The translations under genes were made by a program, and so were the position numbers. The notes under the pieces were generated by a model, which was not told the origin of the DNA, did no database searches, and was given only the letters and a program-made list of their open reading frames with translations. This document shows positions 6,464-57,591 of a DNA stretch of 64,000 bases, in pieces (within the stretch, counting starts at the first letter, position 1; each line of letters starts with the position of its first letter). Origin of the DNA: Candidatus Multivoradales bacterium (GTDB lineage Bacteria; Acidobacteriota; Thermoanaerobaculia; Multivoradales; Multivoraceae); assembly GCA_965223325.1 (NCBI GenBank), contig CBDCWI010000001.1:768001-832000 (forward strand), given 5' to 3'.

Positions 6464-7750
6464 CCAGAACAACCGTTCCATCGAAGCCAGGAATCCGCCG
6501 CGCGCGACGTATCAGAGAAGTCCGACGTCGCAACTGCAGGGCGAGCGCCAACCGCCAAAGGGCGGCCCCACGGACCGCTTGCGCGGCAAAGGTGACGTTA
6601 GCTGGCCCCGTGGTAAACGCCTCGCCAACAGCGCCAGGTCGCCACTCCAATAGCGCCACGTTCCCAACCAAGGCCCACGTCGAGAAGGCCGAAAACCACG
6701 CTGCCAGCTAGGACACGGCCCTCCCAGAACCGTCGTTCCATCGAAGCCAGGAATCCGCCGCGCGCGACGTATCAGAGAAGTCCGACGTCGCAACTGCAGG
6801 GCGAGCGCCAACCGCCAAAGGGCGGCCCCACGGACCGCTTGCGCGGCAAAGGTGACGTTAGCTGGCCCCGTGGTAAACGCCTCGTCAACAGTGCCAGGTC
6901 GCCACTCCAATAGCGCCACGTTCCCAACCAAGGCCCACGTCGAGAAGGCCGAAAACCACGCTGCCAGCTAGGACACGGCCCTCCCAGAACCGTCGTTCCA
7001 TCGAAGCCAGGAATCCGCCGCGCGCGACGTATCAGAGAAGTCCGACGTCGCAACTGCAGGGCGAGCGCCAACCGCCAAAGGGCGGCCCCACGGACCGCTT
7101 GCGCGGCAAAGGTGACGTTAGCTGGCCCCGTGGTAAACGCCTCGCCAACAGCGCCAGGTCGCCACTCCAATAGCGCCACGTTCCCAACCAAGGCCCACGT
7201 CGAGAAGGCCGAAAACCACGCTGCCAGCTAGGACACGGCCCTCCCAGAACCGTCGTTCCATCGAAGCCAGGAATCCGCCGCGCGCGACGTATCAGAGAAG
7301 TCCGACGTCGCAACTGCAGGGCGAGCGCCAACCGCCAAAGGGCGGCCCCACGGACCGCTTGCGCGGCAAAGGTGACGTTAGCTGGCCCCGTGGTAAACAC
7401 CTCGCCAACAGCGCCAGGTCGCCACTCCAATAGCGCCACGTTCCCAACCAAGGCCCACGTCGAGAAGGCCGAAAACCACGCTGCCAGCTAGGACACGGCC
7501 CTCCCAGAACCGTCGTTCCATCGAAGCCAGGAATCCGCCGCGCGCGACGTATCAGAGAAGTCCGACGTCGCAACTGCAGGGCGAGCGCCAACCGCCAAAG
7601 GGCGGCCCCACGGACCGCTTGCGCGGCAAAGGTGACGTTAGCTGGCCCCGTGGTAAACGCCTCGCCAACAGCGCCAGGTCGCCACTCCAATAGCGCCACG
7701 TTCCCAACCAAGGCCCACGTCGAGAAGGCCGAAAACCACGGGGCCAGCTA
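6464..7750 (+). repeat. Tandem array A: about 4.95 near-identical 260-bp structured units
   Basis: TCGAAGCCAG recurs at 6481, 6741, 7001, 7261 and 7521 with only a few SNPs. Lies between convergent genes; homologous to arrays B and C. Confidence 0.97.
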
Positions 7751-50572: not shown

Positions 50573-51295
50573 ATGCGAATCTTGCTGCTACAGGCGCGCA
50601 CCGAGGGTGACCCCACTCGGGTGGAGGAGCGTGAGTCGTTCGCGCGTCACAGTGGAGTGGAAACCGAAGCGATTGAGCCCTGGGATCTCCTCGAGGGCCC
50701 CCCGAGCCTCGCCGACCTCGCGCCCTACGACGCAGTGATGGTTGGCGGCGCGGGTGAGTTCTACGTCTCGAAGGGCGATCTGCCCCATCAAGAACGATTC
50801 TTCGACCTGCTCCTCGAACTCACCGTGACCGGGCCACCGACGTTCGCCTCGTGCTTCGGTTTTCAGTGTCTCGTCGAAGCGGCGGGCGGAGAGATCGTGC
50901 ACGATGCTGAGGGCCTGGAGGTGGGGACCTACCCACTCGAACTCACCGCCGCGGGCCAGGCCGACCCGCTCTTTGGCCATCTGCCGCACACGTTTCTCGC
51001 CCAGATGGGGCGCAAAGATCGAGCAACCCGGCTGCCCGATGGCTGGCAGAATCTTGCCAGTAGTTCTCTCTGTCCCTTCCAGGCGACGCGGGTTCCCGGG
51101 CGACCCTTCTGGGCGTCGCAGTTTCATCCGGAGCTCGATCAGGAGGGAAACCTGGGCCGTTTCAAGCGCTACCTCGACGGCTACGCGGCGGCGATGACCG
51201 AACAAGAGAAGTACAAGGCGTTCGACAATTACCAGCCAACGCCCGAGACCGCCGAGATCCTGACCATCTTCCTCGACCTGGTCCGTCGAGGGTAG
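50573..51295 (+). CDS. Type 1 glutamine amidotransferase-like protein
   Basis: Cys-His-Glu triad in ASCFGFQ and QFHPE. Confidence 0.88.
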   Translation: MRILLLQARTEGDPTRVEERESFARHSGVETEAIEPWDLLEGPPSLADLAPYDAVMVGGAGEFYVSKGDLPHQERFFDLLLELTVTGPPTFASCFGFQCLVEAAGGEIVHDAEGLEVGTYPLELTAAGQADPLFGHLPHTFLAQMGRKDRATRLPDGWQNLASSSLCPFQATRVPGRPFWASQFHPELDQEGNLGRFKRYLDGYAAAMTEQEKYKAFDNYQPTPETAEILTIFLDLVRRG

Positions 51296-51567
51296 GTGAG
51301 AGCCGCAAAAGAACTCCTGGGGCGAGCGCCCTGCACCTCTGACCGCAAACTTCGATGATCCGTCGCGCCCCTTGAATCGAGTCGAAACTCACCCCTTCGG
51401 CGGCTGCTGCTGGTAACCTCGACCACAACGATAAAGAGCCGCCTCGATGCGCCGGGTTGCAGCGTGTAGCGAACCAGCTACCGGTGCCGGGTGAGTGCGT
51501 GCCAGTGCTCGGGCCATCTGGGCCGCGAGACTGGCTGAGGGGCTAAAGCCACTTGGAGGACCAAACC

Positions 51568-51930
51568 ATGGGTGAAATTTTCGACAAAGCAAAAGAGAAG
51601 GTCGGCAACGTTGCAGACAAGGTCGGCGATGCCGCCGAAGCAGCGGTCGACAAAGTCGGTGACGTCGCCGAGGCTGCCATCGACAAGGCTGGTGACATCA
51701 CCGAAGCCGGCGTCGACACCGCCAAGAACGTCGCGGGCAAGGTCGGTGACGCCGCCGAAGGCGCCTGGGACAAAGCAACCGACGTGGCCGACGCCGCAGT
51801 CGACAAGGTAGAGAACATCGCCGAAGCCGCAGTCGACAAGGCCGATGACATCAAAGACGCAGCAGCCGACAAAGTGGCAGCCGCCGCTGAGAAGGTCCAG
51901 GACGTCGCCGAGGACGCCAAGGGCGACTAG
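51568..51930 (+). CDS. LEA-like/YtxH-like protein with 11-residue amphipathic repeats
   Basis: GGAGG ribosome-binding site; repeats of DKVGDAAEAAV, DKVGDVAEAAI, DKATDVADAAV. Confidence 0.8.
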   Translation: MGEIFDKAKEKVGNVADKVGDAAEAAVDKVGDVAEAAIDKAGDITEAGVDTAKNVAGKVGDAAEGAWDKATDVADAAVDKVENIAEAAVDKADDIKDAAADKVAAAAEKVQDVAEDAKGD

Positions 51931-53001
51931 GTTGCGATGGTCGTGGTTGCGGCCTGCGGGTCGCGCTCCATCGTTTCTTGAGACCTTGGGGTTGGGGTTG
52001 CGATCGTGGCTTCGTCAGAATGGCGTTACCACGACCATCGCAACCGATCACTCTTGCGGGGCAAGCGGTCCGCCCGGCGGGCCGTCTTCCATGGCGGCCG
52101 CCTTGCAGTTGCGGCATAGGACTGCAAAGTTCCGGCGCGCCCCGCGGATTCGTGCCTCCGATGGAACGATGATCGTGAATGTTGCGGCCTGCGGGTCGCG
52201 CTCCATCGTTTCTTGAGACCTTGGGGTTGGGGTTGCGATCGTGGCTTCGTCAGAATGGCGTTACCACGACCATCGCAACCGATCACATTTGCGGGGCAAG
52301 CGGTCCGCCCGGCGGGCCGTCTTCCATGGCGGCCGCCTTGCAGTTGCGGCATAGGACTGCAAAGTTCCGGCGCGCCCCGCGGATTCGTGCCTCCGATGGA
52401 ACGATGATCGTGAATGCTGCGGCCTGCGGGTCGCGCTCCATCATTTCTTGAGACCTTGGGGTTGGGGTTGCGATCGTGGCTTCGTCAGAATGGCGTTACC
52501 ACGACCATCGCAACCGATCACTCTTGCGGGGCAAGCGGTCCGCCCGGCGGGCCGTCTTCCATGGCGGCCGCCTTGCAGTTGCGGCATAGGACTGCAAAGG
52601 GCCGGCGCGCCCCGCGGATTCGTGCCTCCGATGGAACGATGATCGTGAATGCTGCGGCCTGCGGGTCGCGCTCCATCGTTTCTTGAGACCTTGGGGTTGG
52701 GGTTGCGATCGTGGCTTCGTCAGAATGGCGTTACCACGACCATCGCAACCGATCACATTTGCGGGGCAAGCGGTCCGCCCGGCGGGCCGTCTTCCATGGC
52801 GGCCGCCTTGCAGTTGCGGCATAGGACTGCAAAGTTCCGGCGCGCCCCGCGGATTCGTGCCTCCGATGGAACGATGATCGTGAATGCTGCGGCCTGCGGG
52901 TCGCGCTCCATCGTTTCTTGAGACCTTGGGGTTGGGGTTGCGATCGTGGCTTCGTCAGAATGGCGTTACCACGACCATCGCAACCGATCACTTTTGCCGC
53001 G

Positions 53002-54911
53002 ATCGCGGTAGGAGCGCCGGTTGCCCGGCGCCCCCCGCACAGATCCCAGCGTGCACTGCTAATGCACTGGGCTCCTGCCTCAGGTATTGACGACAAGTCG
53101 CTCATCAGGCCAGGGATGTTGGACTCGGGCTTTGGGTAGGTAGTGGGCCACCAGGGCCCACATCCGTTTCCAGGACGTGCGGTCTTTGTCACTGCGTCGG
53201 CGCAGAGCGCGCATCCAGTGCCGAATGACCTCCTGTCGAAAGGCGTTCAACGCCGCTGAGTTGCCGGGTACGCCGTAGTAGGCATTGAAGCCTCGCACCA
53301 CGGATCCCAGCCAGAGACCTTGCTCTGGTAGCGGCGAGTGTCGGTGTCCCAGAAGGGCCGTACCGACAGCCTTCAGTGTCCTGCGGATTCGGTGGCGGCT
53401 CGTGATGCGCTTCAGCAAGAACCTCCCTCGACTAGACTGCGCACAGCAGTGCGTAAAGCCTAGAAACTCGAAGGTCTCCGGCCGCCCGAGACCTCGCGCG
53501 CGTCGGTTGTAGGCCGCAAAGCGGCCAAACTCCAGCAGGCGCGTCTTCTCGGGTTGGATCTCCAACGAGAAGTCACGGAGTCGCAGGTTCAGTTCCTCGA
53601 GGAATCGTTCTGCCTCCTCCTGCCTCTCAAATCCAACGATGAAGTCATCCGCGTAGCGCACGAAGATCATGTCCCCAAGCGCGTTGCGTTTCCTCCACTG
53701 CTGGACCCAGAGATCGAGCACGTAGTGCAGGTACACGTTCCCGAGGAGAGGCGAAATCGTCGCCCCCTGAGGAGTCCCCCGCGTGCTCGCGTGCCACTTA
53801 CCGTCTTCCATCACTCCGGACCTCAGCCATTTCTGGATGAGGCGAAGGATCCTACGGTCTCCGATACGGTGCTCGAGAAACTTCACCAGCCACTCGTGGT
53901 CCAGGGCATCGAAGAACCCACGAATGTCTGCGTCGAGCACCCAGTTCACCTTCCGCTTTGTGATTCCAACGAATAGCGCATCCAAAGCATCGTGCTGGCT
54001 GCGGCCTCGCCTGAATCCGTATGAGTACCCGAGAAAGTCTTCCTCGTAGATCGCATCCAACACCGAGACGACGGCGCGCTGAAGGATCTTGTCCTCCAAC
54101 GTGGCGATGCCAAGCGGTCGGAACCGCCCATCCGATTTCTCGATGTAGACGCGACGAGTCGCACTCGCCCGGTAGCTCCCACGGTGGACACGAGAGTGCA
54201 GGTCCTCGAGATTGCTCAGCAAAGATTCTGCGTACTCGCTCCATGACACTCCGTCCACTCCTGCCGCTGCGTCTCGGTGCAACACGTCAAATGCGCTCCG
54301 GAGTCGCTCGACCGTGATGTGGTGAAGAAGCGCTGTGAACTTCACTTCCTTGCCCCTGCGGGCGGCTTCTCGTACACGGCCCAGCGCATTGCTCGCACTC
54401 TCCATCCGGCTCTGTGTCCGGGGTGCGTTTTGCTTGCCCGTGTTCCCCTTGGCCAGGCCCCTTCCCTCCACCGCCTCCGCCGCTGGTCTCCCACCGTTGT
54501 TCGACGACTTCGCAGGTACTACGGGCCTGTCTGACTTCCGCCATCCGTGCGTCATCGGCTTACGGCCTCTAGCCTTCCCGATGCGGACCAGATACCCAAC
54601 TGGCCAGATCGCGGATCTCCCGGTTCTCGCGCATGGAGATTCCACACATGCACAGGGTCTACGACCGCGGGGAGTCGCCGCAGAGCTCGCGATAGCGCGC
54701 TACGGAGTCTCGCCTTCCGCTTCGCTTGACAGCGTCGGCACTCCCAAATTCTTATTTCGCGGCTCAATACCCGGCCTGTGTGTGCCCCTGTCAACGCTTC
54801 ACCGCACCCTCGCGGGAGCCGGCGCATGACTCGGGGACCCTCTGGGTCGCTACCCCTTCGAGGGTGGGACTCTCTCATTCCTTTCTCCATGCCGGTTTAT
54901 CCCGGCGTATC
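53002..54911 (-). mobile_element. Group II intron, 1910 bp, probably bacterial class E
   Basis: Domain V GAGCCCAGTGCATTAGCAGTGCACGCTGGGATC (53074-53042); domain VI hairpin with bulged A ending CTACCGCGAT; EBS1 stem-loop GCCGACGCTGTCAAGCGAAGCGGAAGGC; removal restores a full-length repeat unit with no target duplication. Class assignment is inference. Confidence 0.92.
53080..54405 (-). CDS. ltrA: Group II intron reverse transcriptase/maturase (no endonuclease domain)
   Basis: KFTALLHH, AAGVDG, RPLGIATLEDK, SYGFR, DADIRGFFD, GTPQGATISPLLGN, RYADD, FLGFTH; X domain ending HPWP. Confidence 0.95.
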   Translation of the reverse strand: MESASNALGRVREAARRGKEVKFTALLHHITVERLRSAFDVLHRDAAAGVDGVSWSEYAESLLSNLEDLHSRVHRGSYRASATRRVYIEKSDGRFRPLGIATLEDKILQRAVVSVLDAIYEEDFLGYSYGFRRGRSQHDALDALFVGITKRKVNWVLDADIRGFFDALDHEWLVKFLEHRIGDRRILRLIQKWLRSGVMEDGKWHASTRGTPQGATISPLLGNVYLHYVLDLWVQQWRKRNALGDMIFVRYADDFIVGFERQEEAERFLEELNLRLRDFSLEIQPEKTRLLEFGRFAAYNRRARGLGRPETFEFLGFTHCCAQSSRGRFLLKRITSRHRIRRTLKAVGTALLGHRHSPLPEQGLWLGSVVRGFNAYYGVPGNSAALNAFRQEVIRHWMRALRRRSDKDRTSWKRMWALVAHYLPKARVQHPWPDERLVVNT

Positions 54912-55246
54912 CAAGCGGTCCGCCCGGCGGGCCGTCTTCCATGGCGGCCGCCTTGCAGTTGCGGCATAGGACTGCAAAGTTCCGGCGCGCCCCGCGGATT
55001 CGTGCCTCCGATGGAACGATGATCGTGAATGGTGCGGCCTGCGGGTCGCGCTTCAACATTTGGTAGCGTTCACGGTTGGCACCCTACCGAAGCCAGGTCG
55101 AAACCCCTCAACCCGACGTCAGTACCAAACCCGAGAGTGGCAACCCAGAGGCCAATCGATAGACGGCTTCAGAACTCCACTCCAACACGTCCTACCAAAC
55201 GCTGGAGCGCGACCCGGCCGATCCGCCGATCTGAAGAAGAGCGCTC

Positions 55247-56173
55247 CATCGAGGCACGAATCCGCGGGGCGCGCCGGAACTAGGCAGTCCAAAACCGCAA
55301 CTGCAGGGCGGCCGCCATGGAACACGGCACGCGCTACGGACCGCTTGCCCCGCAAAGGTGACCAGTAGCGATGGTCGTGGTAACGACCCGACGCCGAAGC
55401 CACATCGCAACCCCAACTCCAACGTCCTACCAAACGTTGAAGCGCGACCCACAAGCCGCTACCACGATCATCGCTACATCGGAGGCACGAATCCGCGGGG
55501 CGCGACGGAACTAGGCAGTCCAAAACCGCAACTGCAGGGCGGCCGCCATGGAACACGGCACGCGCTACGAACCGCTTGCCCCGCAAAGGTGACCAGTAGC
55601 GATGGTCGTGGTAACGACCCGACGCCGAAGCCACATCGCAACCCCAACTCCAACGTCCTACCAAACGTTGAAGCGCGACCCACAAGCCGCTACCACGGTC
55701 ATCGCTACATCGGAGGCACGAATCCGCGGGGCGCGACGGAACTAGGCAGTCCAAAACCGCAACTGCAGGGCGGCCGCCATGGAACACGGCACGCGCTACG
55801 GACCGCTTGCCCCGCAAAGGTGACCAGTAGCGATGGTCGTGGTAACGACCCGACGCCGAAGCCACATCGCAACCCCAACTCCAACGTCCTACCAAACGTT
55901 GAAGCGCGACCCACAGGCCGCTACCATGGTCATCGCTACATCGGAGGCACGAATCCGCGGGGCGCGACGGAACTAGGCAGTCCAAAACCGCAACTGCAGG
56001 GCGGCCGCCATGGAACACGGCACGCGCTACGGACCGCTTGCCCCGCAAAGGTGACCAGTAGCGATGGTCGTGGTAACGACCCGACGCCGAAGCCACATCG
56101 CAACCCCAACTCCAACGTCCTACCAAACGTTGAAGCGCGACCCACAGGCCGCAACAACCACGACCATCGCTAC
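55247..56173 (+). repeat. Tandem array C: four 231-bp units, inverted relative to array B
   Basis: GAGGCACGAATCC recurs at 55251, 55482, 55713 and 55944; degenerate partial units in 55060-55246. Confidence 0.96.
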
Positions 56174-57591
56174 ACCGGCCAGTCAGGGTGCCAGGGCTTG
56201 CTGCGCTCGAAAGCCATCGATGCCTGCAGCACCAGATCCTCGCGATGCCGTGGCCCGACGATCTGCAAACCAACCGGCAGACCCACATCCGAGAGTCCTG
56301 CCCGCACCGAGGCCGCCGGGTGCCACGAGAGGTTGAACGGGATCGTGAACACCGCGACTCCGGCTGGAGGTTGCACGCGACCCTCGGTCTCCTTCGGAAA
56401 CGGTCCGCCGGCGGGCGGCGGATCGTACGGCACCGTTGGCGTGAGCAAGAGATCGAAGCGCTCGAAGACCTCGGCTGTCCATTCGACGACTCGAGCGCGC
56501 GCGCGGGCAGCGGCACCCCAGCGCTCGGGCGTCATATCCCAGGCGGTCTTCAGACCGCGGGCAAACGCCCGGGTAATGTCGTCGGGCCGCTCTTCGAGCG
56601 CCTCGTGAAGCTGCGCGGCGATCTCGAAGTTGCCCAGCGATCCCCAGGCCTCGCCCAGCGCGGGCGGACCGCCTTCGATTCTTTTGACGTCGTGACCAAG
56701 AGCCTCGAAGGCACCAACCGCCTCTTCGACGACCCGCGCCACGTCACTCTGCACTACGCCCACGCCGAGGTCGGGCGCGAAGGCGATGTGCAACCGGCGG
56801 TCGAACGGTTGGCGGACCAGGTCGAGGTAAGAAAACTCGGGGTGTGGCAGTGAGGCAGGATCACCGAGCGACGTCCCCACAACCTGGTCGAGCACCAGCG
56901 CCGCATCTTCCACCGTGCGGGTCAACGGGCCGTAGACCGCAGTCGCCCCGTAGTCCCAGGCGGAAAGTGGATCACGCGGCACGCGACCGTACGACGGCTT
57001 GAGGCCGTAGGCGCCGGTGAAGCTCGCCGGAATGCGAATGGAGCCGCCGCCGTCGCTTGCGGTCACCAGGGGAATGACTCCGCCGGCGAGAACCGCTGCC
57101 GAGCCACCCGAAGAACCACCGGGGGTGCGCTCCGGGTCCCAGGGAGAAGACGTCGTTCCGAACGGCAGGTTCTTGCTGATGGCCGTGAAGCCGAACTCAG
57201 GCGTATTGGTCTTCGCCACCACGATCGCGCCCGCCGCTTTCAGGCGCGCCACCTGCGTCGAGTCGCGCTCGGCCACCTTGCCCTCGAAGAGTTTCGAGCC
57301 CATCGAAGTCGGCATCTCCCGAACATCCTCGAGATCCTTGACCCCGAGCGGGATACCCTCGAGCGCACCACCCTCACCGCGGGCAATGCGCTCCTCGCTG
57401 CGACGAGCATCGAGCATGCACAGCTCCGGATCGCGGCCGACCGTCACGGCGTTCAAGGTGCCCCGGGTCGCCTCGATGCGCGCCAGCACCACTTCCATGA
57501 GCTCGACCGGCGACAGGTCCTTGCGATGGATCCGCTGGGTCAGCTCAACCAGGCTCAGTGTAAAGACTTCGTGCACAGCGCTCCCTCCCAT
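56170..57591 (-). CDS. Amidase signature family protein
   Basis: GIPLGVKD, KTNTPEFG, TPGGSSGGSAA, SDGGGSIRIPASFTG, GLPVGLQIVG. Confidence 0.93.
   Translation of the reverse strand: MGGSAVHEVFTLSLVELTQRIHRKDLSPVELMEVVLARIEATRGTLNAVTVGRDPELCMLDARRSEERIARGEGGALEGIPLGVKDLEDVREMPTSMGSKLFEGKVAERDSTQVARLKAAGAIVVAKTNTPEFGFTAISKNLPFGTTSSPWDPERTPGGSSGGSAAVLAGGVIPLVTASDGGGSIRIPASFTGAYGLKPSYGRVPRDPLSAWDYGATAVYGPLTRTVEDAALVLDQVVGTSLGDPASLPHPEFSYLDLVRQPFDRRLHIAFAPDLGVGVVQSDVARVVEEAVGAFEALGHDVKRIEGGPPALGEAWGSLGNFEIAAQLHEALEERPDDITRAFARGLKTAWDMTPERWGAAARARARVVEWTAEVFERFDLLLTPTVPYDPPPAGGPFPKETEGRVQPPAGVAVFTIPFNLSWHPAASVRAGLSDVGLPVGLQIVGPRHREDLVLQASMAFERSKPWHPDWPV

Follow-up and report, generated by a model that had tools for sequence, protein, structure and literature searches.

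Bacterial group II introns persist by landing where harm is small. In the excerpt of PMC4424553, three target strategies are on record: homing to specific sequences, which often belong to other mobile elements, insertion at terminators, and insertion at attC sites. RmInt1 and RmInt2 of Sinorhizobium meliloti, class D introns with an endonuclease-less intron-encoded protein (IEP), exist as many near-identical copies (PMC5894124, PMC4615759). They home into multi-copy IS elements, namely ISRm2011-2 and the ends of ISRm17, and also into ectopic sites with a similar IBS (excerpt of PMC5894124). Class C (IIC) introns, likewise endonuclease-less, use repeated folded non-coding motifs such as terminators and attC sites as landing sites, and the IIC-attC introns are oriented against the transcription of the genes next to them (excerpts of PMC4424553 and PMC7923331). 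The nested introns of Methanosarcina acetivorans provide a 'perpetual homing site', a self-renewing, gene-free supply of targets in which the sites are other introns (excerpt of PMC4424553). The literature covered, on introns in structured or intergenic repeats, on intron classes and on EBS2, contained no group II intron with a non-IS tandem repeat family as its homing site.

The window analysed here is a stretch of 64,000 nucleotides of contig C1 (window coordinate equals C1 coordinate minus 768000), in which a group II intron interrupts one unit of a tandem repeat family. The arrays and their adjoining genes are arranged as follows:
6474-7750, plus strand: repeat array 1, period 260, five units, none interrupted (unit search).
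51553-51930, plus strand: open reading frame containing internal repeats of 33 nt; it stops 18 nt short of array 2 and converges with the units (ORF list; Pfam matches weak, below cut-offs).
51948-53001, minus strand: repeat array 2, period 235, with four full units, one partial unit and the 3' half of the interrupted unit (unit search).
54912-55060, minus strand: 5' half of the unit that the intron interrupts; on this strand, array 2 begins with that unit (unit comparison).
55242-56178, plus strand: repeat array 3, period 231, four units in the opposite orientation, none interrupted (unit search).
56170-57591, minus strand: amidase gene, its stop codon abutting array 3, convergent with the units (Pfam Amidase, 5e-95).
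Within 51400-56700, a promoter/terminator scan returned no promoter-like sites (0.8 expected) and no terminators at the array edges. All 14 units of the three arrays (5 + 5 + 4, the interrupted unit counted) contain CGCTTG at the insertion site, as the preliminary description of this DNA had stated.

The intron is complete and 1910 nt long, with the following parts:
53002-54911, minus strand: group II intron, 5' GAUACG ... CUACCGCGAU 3' (comparison with empty units; same ends in 14 full-length genomic copies).
54655-54873, minus strand: domain I core, Rfam RF02005 (group-II-D1D4-6; 180.6 bits against a gathering score of 49; full model, 1-225).
53080-54555, minus strand: IEP of 491 aa counted from the first ATG, a reverse transcriptase (RT) with YADD plus a maturase region, encoded in domain IV (Pfam, NCBIfam, translation).
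53042-53074, minus strand: hairpin resembling domain V (GAGCCCAG...CUGGGAUC), its 3' strand carrying a 2-nt bulge (fold of the 3'-terminal 99 nt).
53004-53039, minus strand: hairpin resembling domain VI, in which a UA is bulged (same fold).
Read along the minus strand, the 5' exon terminates in GGACCGCTTG, its last six bases (54912-54917) being CGCTTG; the intron begins with GATACG at 54911 and closes with CTACCGCGAT at 53002, and the 3' exon runs from 53001 downwards, starting with CGCGGCAAAAGTGA. Empty neighbour units read CGCTTG/CCCCGC at this point, and comparison with these uninterrupted units makes a shift of the boundary impossible. The last 99 nt of the intron fold with z = -3.04, and both the domain V and the domain VI shapes are present. 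In domain VI of group II introns an A bulges out at a distance of 7-8 nt from the 3' end; here the A at 53009, 7 nt from that end, is the presumed branch point. The usual boundary consensus of group II introns is 5' GUGYG ... AY 3', which is typical and, exceptions being known, not strictly defining. The 3' end of the window intron (AU) agrees with this consensus, whereas its 5' end (GAUACG) departs from it. Class C introns carry a CGC triad in domain V; the base of domain V here, by contrast, reads AGC-type (GAGCC). The Rfam search listed no hit to RF00029 at E<=1. One exception to the boundary consensus, UUGCG..GU, appears in the excerpt of PMC7923331.

The IEP matches Pfam RVT_1 (8e-39) and, over residues 87-454, NCBIfam TIGR04416 (342.6 bits, cut-off 300). 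Neither HNH nor any other nuclease family was matched in the Pfam and NCBIfam searches, and the C-terminus extends only 37 residues beyond the end of the maturase model. Among structures in the PDB, both IIC-type RTs (3e-41) and LtrA (8e-38) are matched, and these matches do not separate the classes. The reading frame is open in all 14 full-length copies. Judged by these sequence features, the element is classed as a mobile, ORF-containing group II intron that lacks an endonuclease and belongs to the RF02005 lineage.

The genome contains 14 full-length copies of the intron, 12 identical and two with one substitution each (at least 99.95% identity among themselves). Thirteen lie at 13 different loci between positions 139 and 140 of the repeat-unit profile, with one intron only at each occupied locus. 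The flanking units are 97.6% identical within arrays, versus a median of ~63% (maximum 81.5%) between arrays; since the unit flanks have diverged between arrays and the introns are near-identical, the intron moved independently and was not copied along with the unit. The remaining copy is ectopic, inserted in the sense direction between two codons of a GNAT acetyltransferase gene, where only GCGCTTG/C is common to the repeat family and neither a unit nor a fold surrounds it. Eight of the 14 copies are co-directional with the replication fork inferred from GC skew, giving no lagging-strand-template bias, and occupied and empty arrays do not differ in fork orientation (Fisher P = 1.0). A loss footprint of the intron and a 5'-truncated remnant are also present in the genome. 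A candidate empty allele, joining 52997 to 54912 with four letters between them and the one joint given by four DNA runs over 52880-55100, was traced to uninterrupted neighbour units and rejected.

Pairing between the intron and its target involves the following elements:
54723-54728, minus strand: EBS1, CAAGCG, at intron positions 184-189 within the 9-nt loop GUCAAGCGA (loop position in the Rfam alignment; co-variation with the last six exon bases in relatives).
54912-54917, minus strand: IBS1, CGCUUG, the final six bases of the 5' exon, spanning three pairs of stem P1, a UU bulge and one further pair (unit comparison and P1 alignment).
53001, minus strand: presumed IBS3, C, the first base of the 3' exon (C in 14/14 copies).
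54986-54995, minus strand: 5' arm of P1 (GCGGGGCGCG) of the interrupted unit (P1 alignment).
52992-53001, minus strand: start of the 3' exon of the window copy (P1 3' arm), differing from neighbour units at +2, +4 and +10.
The loop is written in lower-case (variable) consensus letters in the RF02005 alignment, which is the expected location of EBS1, and a 6-nt complement at any of four registers in a 9-nt loop has a chance of ~0.001 by an arithmetic estimate. At the 27 of 58 related loci where both loop and exon are readable, all six positions pair in 26 and one mismatch occurs in the other; the relatives contribute four further EBS1 sequences, plus a fifth read by eye (locus L025). Both the Rfam loop position and this co-variation bear out the complementarity of EBS1 to IBS1 that had been proposed from the window alone. 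Among the columns of the related introns, which form ~4 independent groups, no pairing column was found as an EBS2 partner for exon positions -7 to -12, and two columns (intron positions 110 and 316) track the +1 base as EBS3 candidates, with only those ~4 independent groups available. With no EBS2 and no firm EBS3, the target beyond seven bases has no reader among the intron columns found. The 7-base word formed by IBS1 and IBS3, CGCTTGC, occurs 117 times within the repeat family versus 1680 times outside it, and if it alone were deciding, 13 of 14 insertions in the family would have P = 1.8e-14. The 12-mer GACCGCTTGCGC is found 72 times inside the family and five times outside.

The repeat family has ~190 matches at 62 loci in the genome, about 49 of which are without an intron, and 117 of its empty sites still carry the 7-base word. 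Units diverge by ~37% between arrays, which share only ~18 bases of sequence around the insertion site. A column-pair screen of 81 non-redundant units clearly recovered P1 alone, a long-range stem of ten pairs, three with compensatory changes (alignment A1). The insertion site lies in its 3' arm, between pairs 38-120 and 37-121 of that alignment, as the preliminary description had placed it, and four of the six IBS1 bases are paired within the stem. P1 is intact in all 13 occupied units, including the compensatory-arm variants AAGGCGC/GCGCCUU and GCGGUG/CACCGC. Among the variants at +2 to +5, the CCCC form found in the window array is occupied nowhere. Additional helices in the 3' half of the unit (UAGYG/CRCU, CGUGG/CCACG, CGACC/GGUCG) were seen by eye only. 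The proposal that the intron occupies the structured strand was not confirmed, as the strands were separated neither by minimum free energies, computed for 32 array representatives (mean z of -0.28 on the forward strand and -0.31 on the reverse, alike and without a strong overall fold), nor by G-U versus A-C counts in P1 (2 vs 1). At 28 of the 62 loci the units, and hence the intron too, run convergently to the adjacent ORF, a likeness to IIC-attC introns. Directly upstream of one intron copy, an array (G000:C2:700738-701381) is made up of five 130-nt half-units, each ending at the insertion-site position; in the segment compared they differ clearly from the intron-adjacent unit, by roughly 15% by eye. 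The units have no Rfam match at E<=1, and neither intron nor repeat family turned up among the matches listed for 40 related genomes. A REP/RAYT-type origin was considered and rejected: only one of the 28 Y1_Tnp matches in the genome lies within ~350 nt of an array, about the chance level by estimate.

Relatives of the intron were collected at 58 loci (15 in genomes, 42 in metagenomes and one on a Ralstonia plasmid). Introns of the same Rfam lineage occur in uncultured Gammaproteobacteria, Solirubrobacterales, soil metagenomes, a Ralstonia solanacearum megaplasmid and Klebsiella plasmids. Their IEPs are 55-69% identical to that of the window intron (maximum 69%). The Ralstonia relative has 65.7% DNA identity across the whole intron, and the best Sinorhizobium plasmid match covers 60% of it at 66% identity. 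Domain I architecture and the EBS1 hairpin are the same in these RF02005-lineage introns, whereas the repeat-unit target and the GAUACG 5' end belong to the window intron only; the relatives begin with GUACG, GUGCG or GUAGCG. They sit in unrelated targets, among them a DUF772/DDE transposase gene and other short conserved words, one group targeting CGCUUA/C, one base off CGCUUG/C. No repeat-profile match occurs at any of the 58 loci, and no common fold emerged at the rebuilt target sites. The idea that the repeat family is a safe harbour for the intron consequently survives in part: the family is the main landing site in this genome (13/14 copies, 117 empty sites), but as a property of the lineage this is not supported, since related introns in unrelated targets are the outcome that the preliminary description had named as refuting it. 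With no close relative in the collections searched, specialisation can be claimed for this one intron only.

These observations are most probably explained by ordinary EBS/IBS-guided retrohoming of a single, recently arrived intron, for which the conserved core of the repeat constitutes a multi-copy homing site. The intron would have entered the genome lineage fairly recently and then spread via retrohoming, its RNA-protein particle reading a target of roughly 10-14 bases (about GGACCGCUUG/CGCC). The copies are placed with single-base precision, and the EBS1 loop pairs with CGCUUG. No other part of this structured, species-restricted repeat unit is as conserved as the target, which would owe its conservation to forming the 3' arm of P1; the family would therefore provide more than 100 nearly identical sites outside genes, at which insertion would be cheap. 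The fold accounts for the conservation and multi-copy state of the target, and is probably not itself what the intron recognises. Host replication would presumably supply the primer for reverse transcription, as it does for other introns without an endonuclease, and the copy in the GNAT gene would stem from an infrequent landing at a site resembling the target. Points against this reading are the failure to find EBS2 or a firm EBS3, the departing 5' end, the even distribution over fork directions and the donor-like 3'-exon tract of the window copy; the surplus of family insertions could also in part reflect loss of harmful insertions elsewhere, not recognition. Near-identical copies with an open IEP suggest that the intron has recently been active and mobile, and it is predicted to splice. 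Read from its sequence, the genome is a snapshot of an ongoing invasion, with ectopic copy, loss footprint, truncated remnant and, possibly, exon co-conversion.

That the intron, beyond simply reading 12-14 bases, exploits the repeat family as such, by docking on the folded unit in single-stranded DNA or by recombination of an unspliced donor RNA copy via the shared core, is unlikely. The docking variant, which is unsupported and quite unlikely, would make this an IIB-like intron with a structural target: its particle would recognise P1 with the UU bulge while the DNA is single-stranded, much as stem-loops of terminators or attC sites serve class C introns. The retention of P1 in every occupied unit, compensatory variants included, the concentration of insertions in the family far beyond what the 7-base word predicts, the failure to find EBS2 and the IEP without an endonuclease domain are all consistent with it, but within the family sequence and structure go together, and the concentration cannot tell one from the other. 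Folding would, moreover, hide IBS1 from EBS1, as four of its six bases lie paired in the stem. The analogy with attC and terminator targeting, raised in the preliminary description, is likewise weak: class C introns use an IBS1 of 3-4 bp and insert after or beside a stem-loop (excerpt of PMC7923331), whereas EBS1-IBS1 here is 6 bp, would compete with the stem and places the insertion within its arm. The ectopic copy lies in a gene without such a fold, and the targets of the relatives share none.

Spread mainly through recombination of homologous units as DNA or cDNA (gene conversion with an intron-bearing unit as donor, or cDNA of an unspliced transcript), instead of reverse splicing at each site, is very improbable. 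The first 14 bases of the 3' exon of the window copy are those of the copy at G000:C2:2708381-2710290, and with its changes at +2, +4 and +10 this exon looks like donor co-conversion; the changes at +2 and +4 break two P1 pairs. Such a donor-like tract is not predicted by plain reverse splicing. It occurs in one copy only, however, and the other eight copies with array neighbours have flanks (<=60 nt) that match those neighbours or show isolated differences, without a donor-like pattern. The ~18 bases shared around the site are short for homologous recombination, and the ectopic copy has no homology at all. That the intron RT generates or amplifies the units, as had also been suggested, is hardly credible and without support: the half-units upstream of one intron copy, all ending at the insertion position, speak in its favour, but they differ clearly from the adjacent unit, ~49/62 loci are intron-free, each occupied locus has a single intron, and units ~63% identical between arrays against near-identical introns make the repeat family much older than the intron burst.

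Under sequence-guided retrohoming, the window intron in its repeat family may be regarded as analogous to RmInt1 in ISRm2011-2. An endonuclease-less IEP, many near-identical copies, a multi-copy repeated element as canonical target, rare ectopic insertions at similar IBS and degenerate remnants are common to both (excerpts of PMC5894124 and PMC4615759). In contrast to RmInt1 and RmInt2, the target here is a non-IS, non-coding, tandem structured unit beside gene 3' ends, and the intron lacks both a lagging-strand-template bias and a detected EBS2. A self-renewing, gene-free supply of homing sites is shared with the nested introns of M. acetivorans, but it is furnished here by an independent host repeat family.

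The locus and its genome amount to a natural experiment, in which 13 of 14 near-identical copies occupy a single base position in a structured, non-coding tandem repeat specific to this host, and more than 100 sites stand empty. They draw attention to the repeat family itself, for which Rfam gives no match and which did not appear among the matches listed for 40 related genomes. Were docking on the folded unit true, it would be a structure-assisted mode outside class C, where alone such a mode is known so far; were the recombination route true, as the 3'-exon tract in the window hints, it would constitute a homology-assisted retrohoming pathway possible only with a repeat family. The natural target variants at hand may give access to the recognition rules of this lineage, which would be useful for targetron design in GC-rich hosts.

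The insert that divides one unit of array 2, the second of three tandem arrays of one repeat family in the window, is a complete group II intron. On the minus strand the 5' part of the unit ends ...GGACCGCTTG, the insert begins GATACG (GAUACG, an unusual intron 5' end) and closes CTACCGCGAT, and the unit then continues CGCGGCAAAAGTGA, while sister units without the insertion read ...GGACCGCTTGCCCCGCAAATGTGA...; as the joint bases permit no shift, the boundaries are exact. The features concerned are:

51553-51930, plus strand, ORF ending 18 nt before array 2 (array edge 51948)
53002-54911, minus strand, group II intron inserted in one tandem repeat unit, 1910 nt
53080-54555, minus strand, ORF of the intron-encoded protein (IEP), 491 aa, RVT_1 8e-39
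54723-54728, minus strand, EBS1 CAAGCG, intron positions 184-189
56170-57591, minus strand, amidase gene abutting array 3 (array edge 56178)

The Rfam family RF02005 (group-II-D1D4-6) scores 180.6 bits at 54655-54873(-), its gathering score being 49; no other family reaches its gathering score in the rest of the window, and nothing besides RF02005 matches 51000-56000 at E<=1. The IEP passes the cut-off of the NCBIfam group II RT/maturase equivalog (342.6 bits against 300) and contains YADD, and no nuclease domain was found in it, just 37 residues lying C-terminal to the maturase model. Folding of the final 99 nt of the intron (z = -3.04) gives two hairpins: one resembles domain V and has a 2-nt bulge, the other resembles domain VI and has its bulged A 7 nt before the intron end. 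The IEP ORF also carries a close look-alike of the intron's own homing site, CGACCGCTTGG (coding ...RPLG...; window ~54111-54121, minus strand), which differs from that site at +1 (G, not C) and holds no nested intron copy.

The preliminary description identified EBS1 as CAAGCG, the exact complement of CGCUUG, the final six bases of the 5' exon (IBS1). In the Rfam alignment, CAAGCG occupies the 9-nt loop, variable in the consensus, of the hairpin GCC-GA-CGCU-[GUCAAGCGA]-AGCG-GAA-GGC, and no other sequence takes the EBS1 place in domain I. Of 58 related loci, 27 had a loop and an exon that could both be read by sequence patterns; pairing is complete over the six positions in 26 of these, and the other has a single mismatch. 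The pairs in relatives include UAAGCG/CGCUUA, UCAGCA/UGCUGA, CAGAGU/ACUCUG, CCAGGU with ACUUGG and AUCUGG and, by eye, UAACCG/CGGUUA (locus L025). Since EBS1 thus covaries with the exon, and a column search matched exon bases -1 to -4 with intron positions 184-187, the assignment is correct.

The assembly (G000; 6.69 Mb in two contigs, C1 and C2; 64% G+C) contains 14 full-length intron copies and one 237-nt 3' fragment (97% identity). Twelve copies are identical, the other two have one base difference each, and the IEP frame is open in all 14. Thirteen share the surrounding motif ...CAGGGCG-N-CGGACCGCTTG^CGCCGCAAnnGTGA-N-CGTGGTAAC. A unit profile built from the intron-flanking units and run on the genome gave 190 matches, which fall at 62 loci (17 with a single match) and have periods of 130-360 nt. 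All 13 family introns are inserted between positions 139 and 140 of the profile, and occupied loci hold one intron each. The copy at C1:1610963 adjoins its unit but escaped the array-flagging rule. Passive spread of the intron along with its unit is ruled out, as the introns are near-identical and their flanks divergent: unit identity is 97.6% within arrays (median, 250 pairs) but 62.7% between them (1758 pairs; maximum 81.5%). The remaining copy, inserted in sense orientation between two codons of a GNAT acetyltransferase ORF (Acetyltransf_3, 8e-28), shares only GCGCTTG/C with the family target and behaves like an ectopic retrotransposition.

Insertions are more concentrated in the family than a seven-base target word would predict. 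This word, CGCTTGC, joins IBS1 to the first base of the 3' exon and is found at 117 places in empty family units against 1680 in the rest of the genome; were it alone decisive, the chance of 13 of 14 insertions falling in the family would be P = 1.8e-14. The longer word GACCGCTTGCGC is nearly confined to the family (72 occurrences within, 5 outside), and a target of ~10-14 bases would therefore suffice. The column search over relatives found no intron segment pairing with exon positions -7 to -12 and no firm EBS3 candidate; one related group has identical introns, yet its bases -7 to -12 vary. The extra specificity may thus come from the protein, from an overlooked element or partly from purifying selection against insertions in genes.

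The site had been placed inside the 3' arm of stem 1, and this is borne out by RNAalifold on 23 divergent units, which yields a long-range stem of 10 pairs (P1; GCSGSGCGCG with CGC-UU-GCSCSG-C) with the insertion in its 3' arm, one pair past the UU bulge. Three P1 pairs show compensatory changes (GC 15 / CG 7 / GU 1; CG 21 / GC 2; GC 22 / AU 1), and occupied units add further compensated variants, e.g. AAGGCGC/GCGCCUU and GCGGUG/CACCGC. P1 is retained in all 13 occupied units, which makes fold and target sequence inseparable by sequence alone. P1 engages four of the six bases of IBS1 in pairs, so a folded unit would conceal IBS1 rather than present it. Class C introns, as one account describes them, insert adjoining a stem-loop and use 3-4 bp (PMC7923331), whereas the present site lies inside a stem arm and has a six-base IBS1. 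For both reasons, the fold is read as the probable cause of the target being conserved and numerous, rather than as a recognition signal.

The intron strand had also been equated with the structured strand of the repeat, which the data do not bear out: free-energy z-scores of units are ~0 on either strand, P1 wobble counts are 2 versus 1, and gene context speaks against it. A convergent GC3-rich ORF ends <=100 nt from the array 3' side (in intron orientation) at 28 of 62 loci; with a crude ORF caller, none of the 62 has a co-oriented ORF starting within 100 nt of that side, and overall the ORF is convergent at 40 loci, co-oriented at five and not called at 17. Read-through from the two window genes beside arrays 2 and 3 would give transcripts antisense to the intron, and a scan found no promoter-like site near these two arrays. 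The family, which has no Rfam match, looks like a 3'-flank element of fixed orientation relative to the upstream gene. At G000:C2:700738-701381 (minus strand), directly upstream of an intron-bearing unit, five tandem 130-nt half-units lack the unit 3' half and each end (GGACTGCTTC) at the intron insertion position; this may be coincidence or a sign of a breakpoint hot spot at the insertion site.

Over the whole of C1 the cumulative GC skew declines monotonically, and on C2 it has its minimum at ~3.5 Mb and maximum at ~0.35 Mb, which suggests that the contigs are arms of one ~6.7 Mb chromosome, not two replicons. On this map replication runs in the same direction as 8 of 14 introns and 29 of 62 arrays, so there is no replication-direction bias. 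The genome also has 28 Y1_Tnp (IS200-like) matches in open frames of ~170-410 aa, many clustered near contig ends (including G000:C2:4455510-4486968 and C1:2126128-2143849); only one of the 28 lies beside an array, so no connection with the repeat family is apparent.

Past steps of the intron's life cycle have left marks at several loci. Beside the window copy, the 3' exon (52992-53001, minus strand) departs from the four sister units at positions +2, +4 and +10; over its first 14 bases it is identical to the 3' exon next to another copy, G000:C2:2708381-2710290. The changes at +2 and +4 convert two P1 pairs to G-G; position +10 is also polymorphic inside that array. No donor-like tract was found at the eight other copies with array neighbours, whose flanks within 60 nt of the site match those neighbours or differ at isolated bases. 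The window exon resembles the product of a single co-conversion event in which donor exon sequence came in with the moving intron. The unit at G000:C2:721858-722018 (minus strand), ~350 nt from the copy at C2:722363-724272, reads GGACCGCGAT^CGCC instead of GGACCGCTTG^CGCC; the changed bases are GAT, the intron's last three, and ACCGC is common to exon and intron end. It is best read as intron loss between the 5-base direct repeats or as mis-splicing followed by reverse transcription, and the change destroys IBS1. Two empty units beside occupied ones read CGCCTG. The 237-nt fragment, a 5'-truncated remnant at G000:C2:4242250-4242488, preceded by AT-rich, foreign-looking sequence and followed by the 3' half of a unit, is older than the 14 near-identical copies.

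The closest IEPs (55-69% identity) come from 15 loci in species-representative genomes (uncultured Gammaproteobacteria, Solirubrobacterales and others) and 42 in metagenomes; an intron on the Ralstonia solanacearum megaplasmid matches over its full length (65.7% DNA identity), and a weaker match recurs on thousands of enterobacterial plasmids. None of the 58 related loci matches the unit profile, so related introns sit in unrelated targets. Solirubrobacterales-type introns (L021, L024, L027, L119, L120, L130) all lie at ...GGAUCAYYUGG^YGUGG in the 5' region of a DUF772/DDE transposase gene, a classic homing into an insertion sequence; another group follows ...CUAGCAGGCUGCUGA, and a third ...CGCUUA/C, one base off the present target. 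Among 40 related genomes, including the genus's one other species, no IEP above 60% identity was found, the best being a fragment. Among the candidates listed, at most 59-150 per genome, a strict two-arm unit pattern gave 76 matches in the genome itself and none in the 40 relatives or the reversed control, and a covariance model gave one 26-bit match in the relatives (L096, G014:C254:2149-2276), which shares with the unit the CGUGGUAA part and the 3' part ...UGAUGCGAGCG-N-CGUGGUAAUCACCACG, the latter occurring twice. The CGUGGUAA hairpin module may accordingly be more widespread than the whole unit. As neither was found in the 40 relatives, intron and family both look restricted to this lineage, the intron being the younger.

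The original observation is confirmed. Of the ideas attached to it, amplification of units by the RT finds no support, and the safe harbour is supported for this intron in this genome (13 of 14 copies), not for its lineage (0 of 58 loci). The endonuclease-less RmInt1 and RmInt2, as one source reports, likewise combine a canonical multi-copy target with occasional ectopic sites of similar IBS and with remnants (PMC5894124), matching the multi-copy target, ectopic copy and remnant found here. Literature on group II introns in structured or intergenic repeats, their classes and EBS2 yielded no comparable harbour. The novelty lies in the kind of harbour, as the landing sites belong to a structured, non-coding tandem repeat specific to the host and not to an insertion sequence, terminator or attC site.
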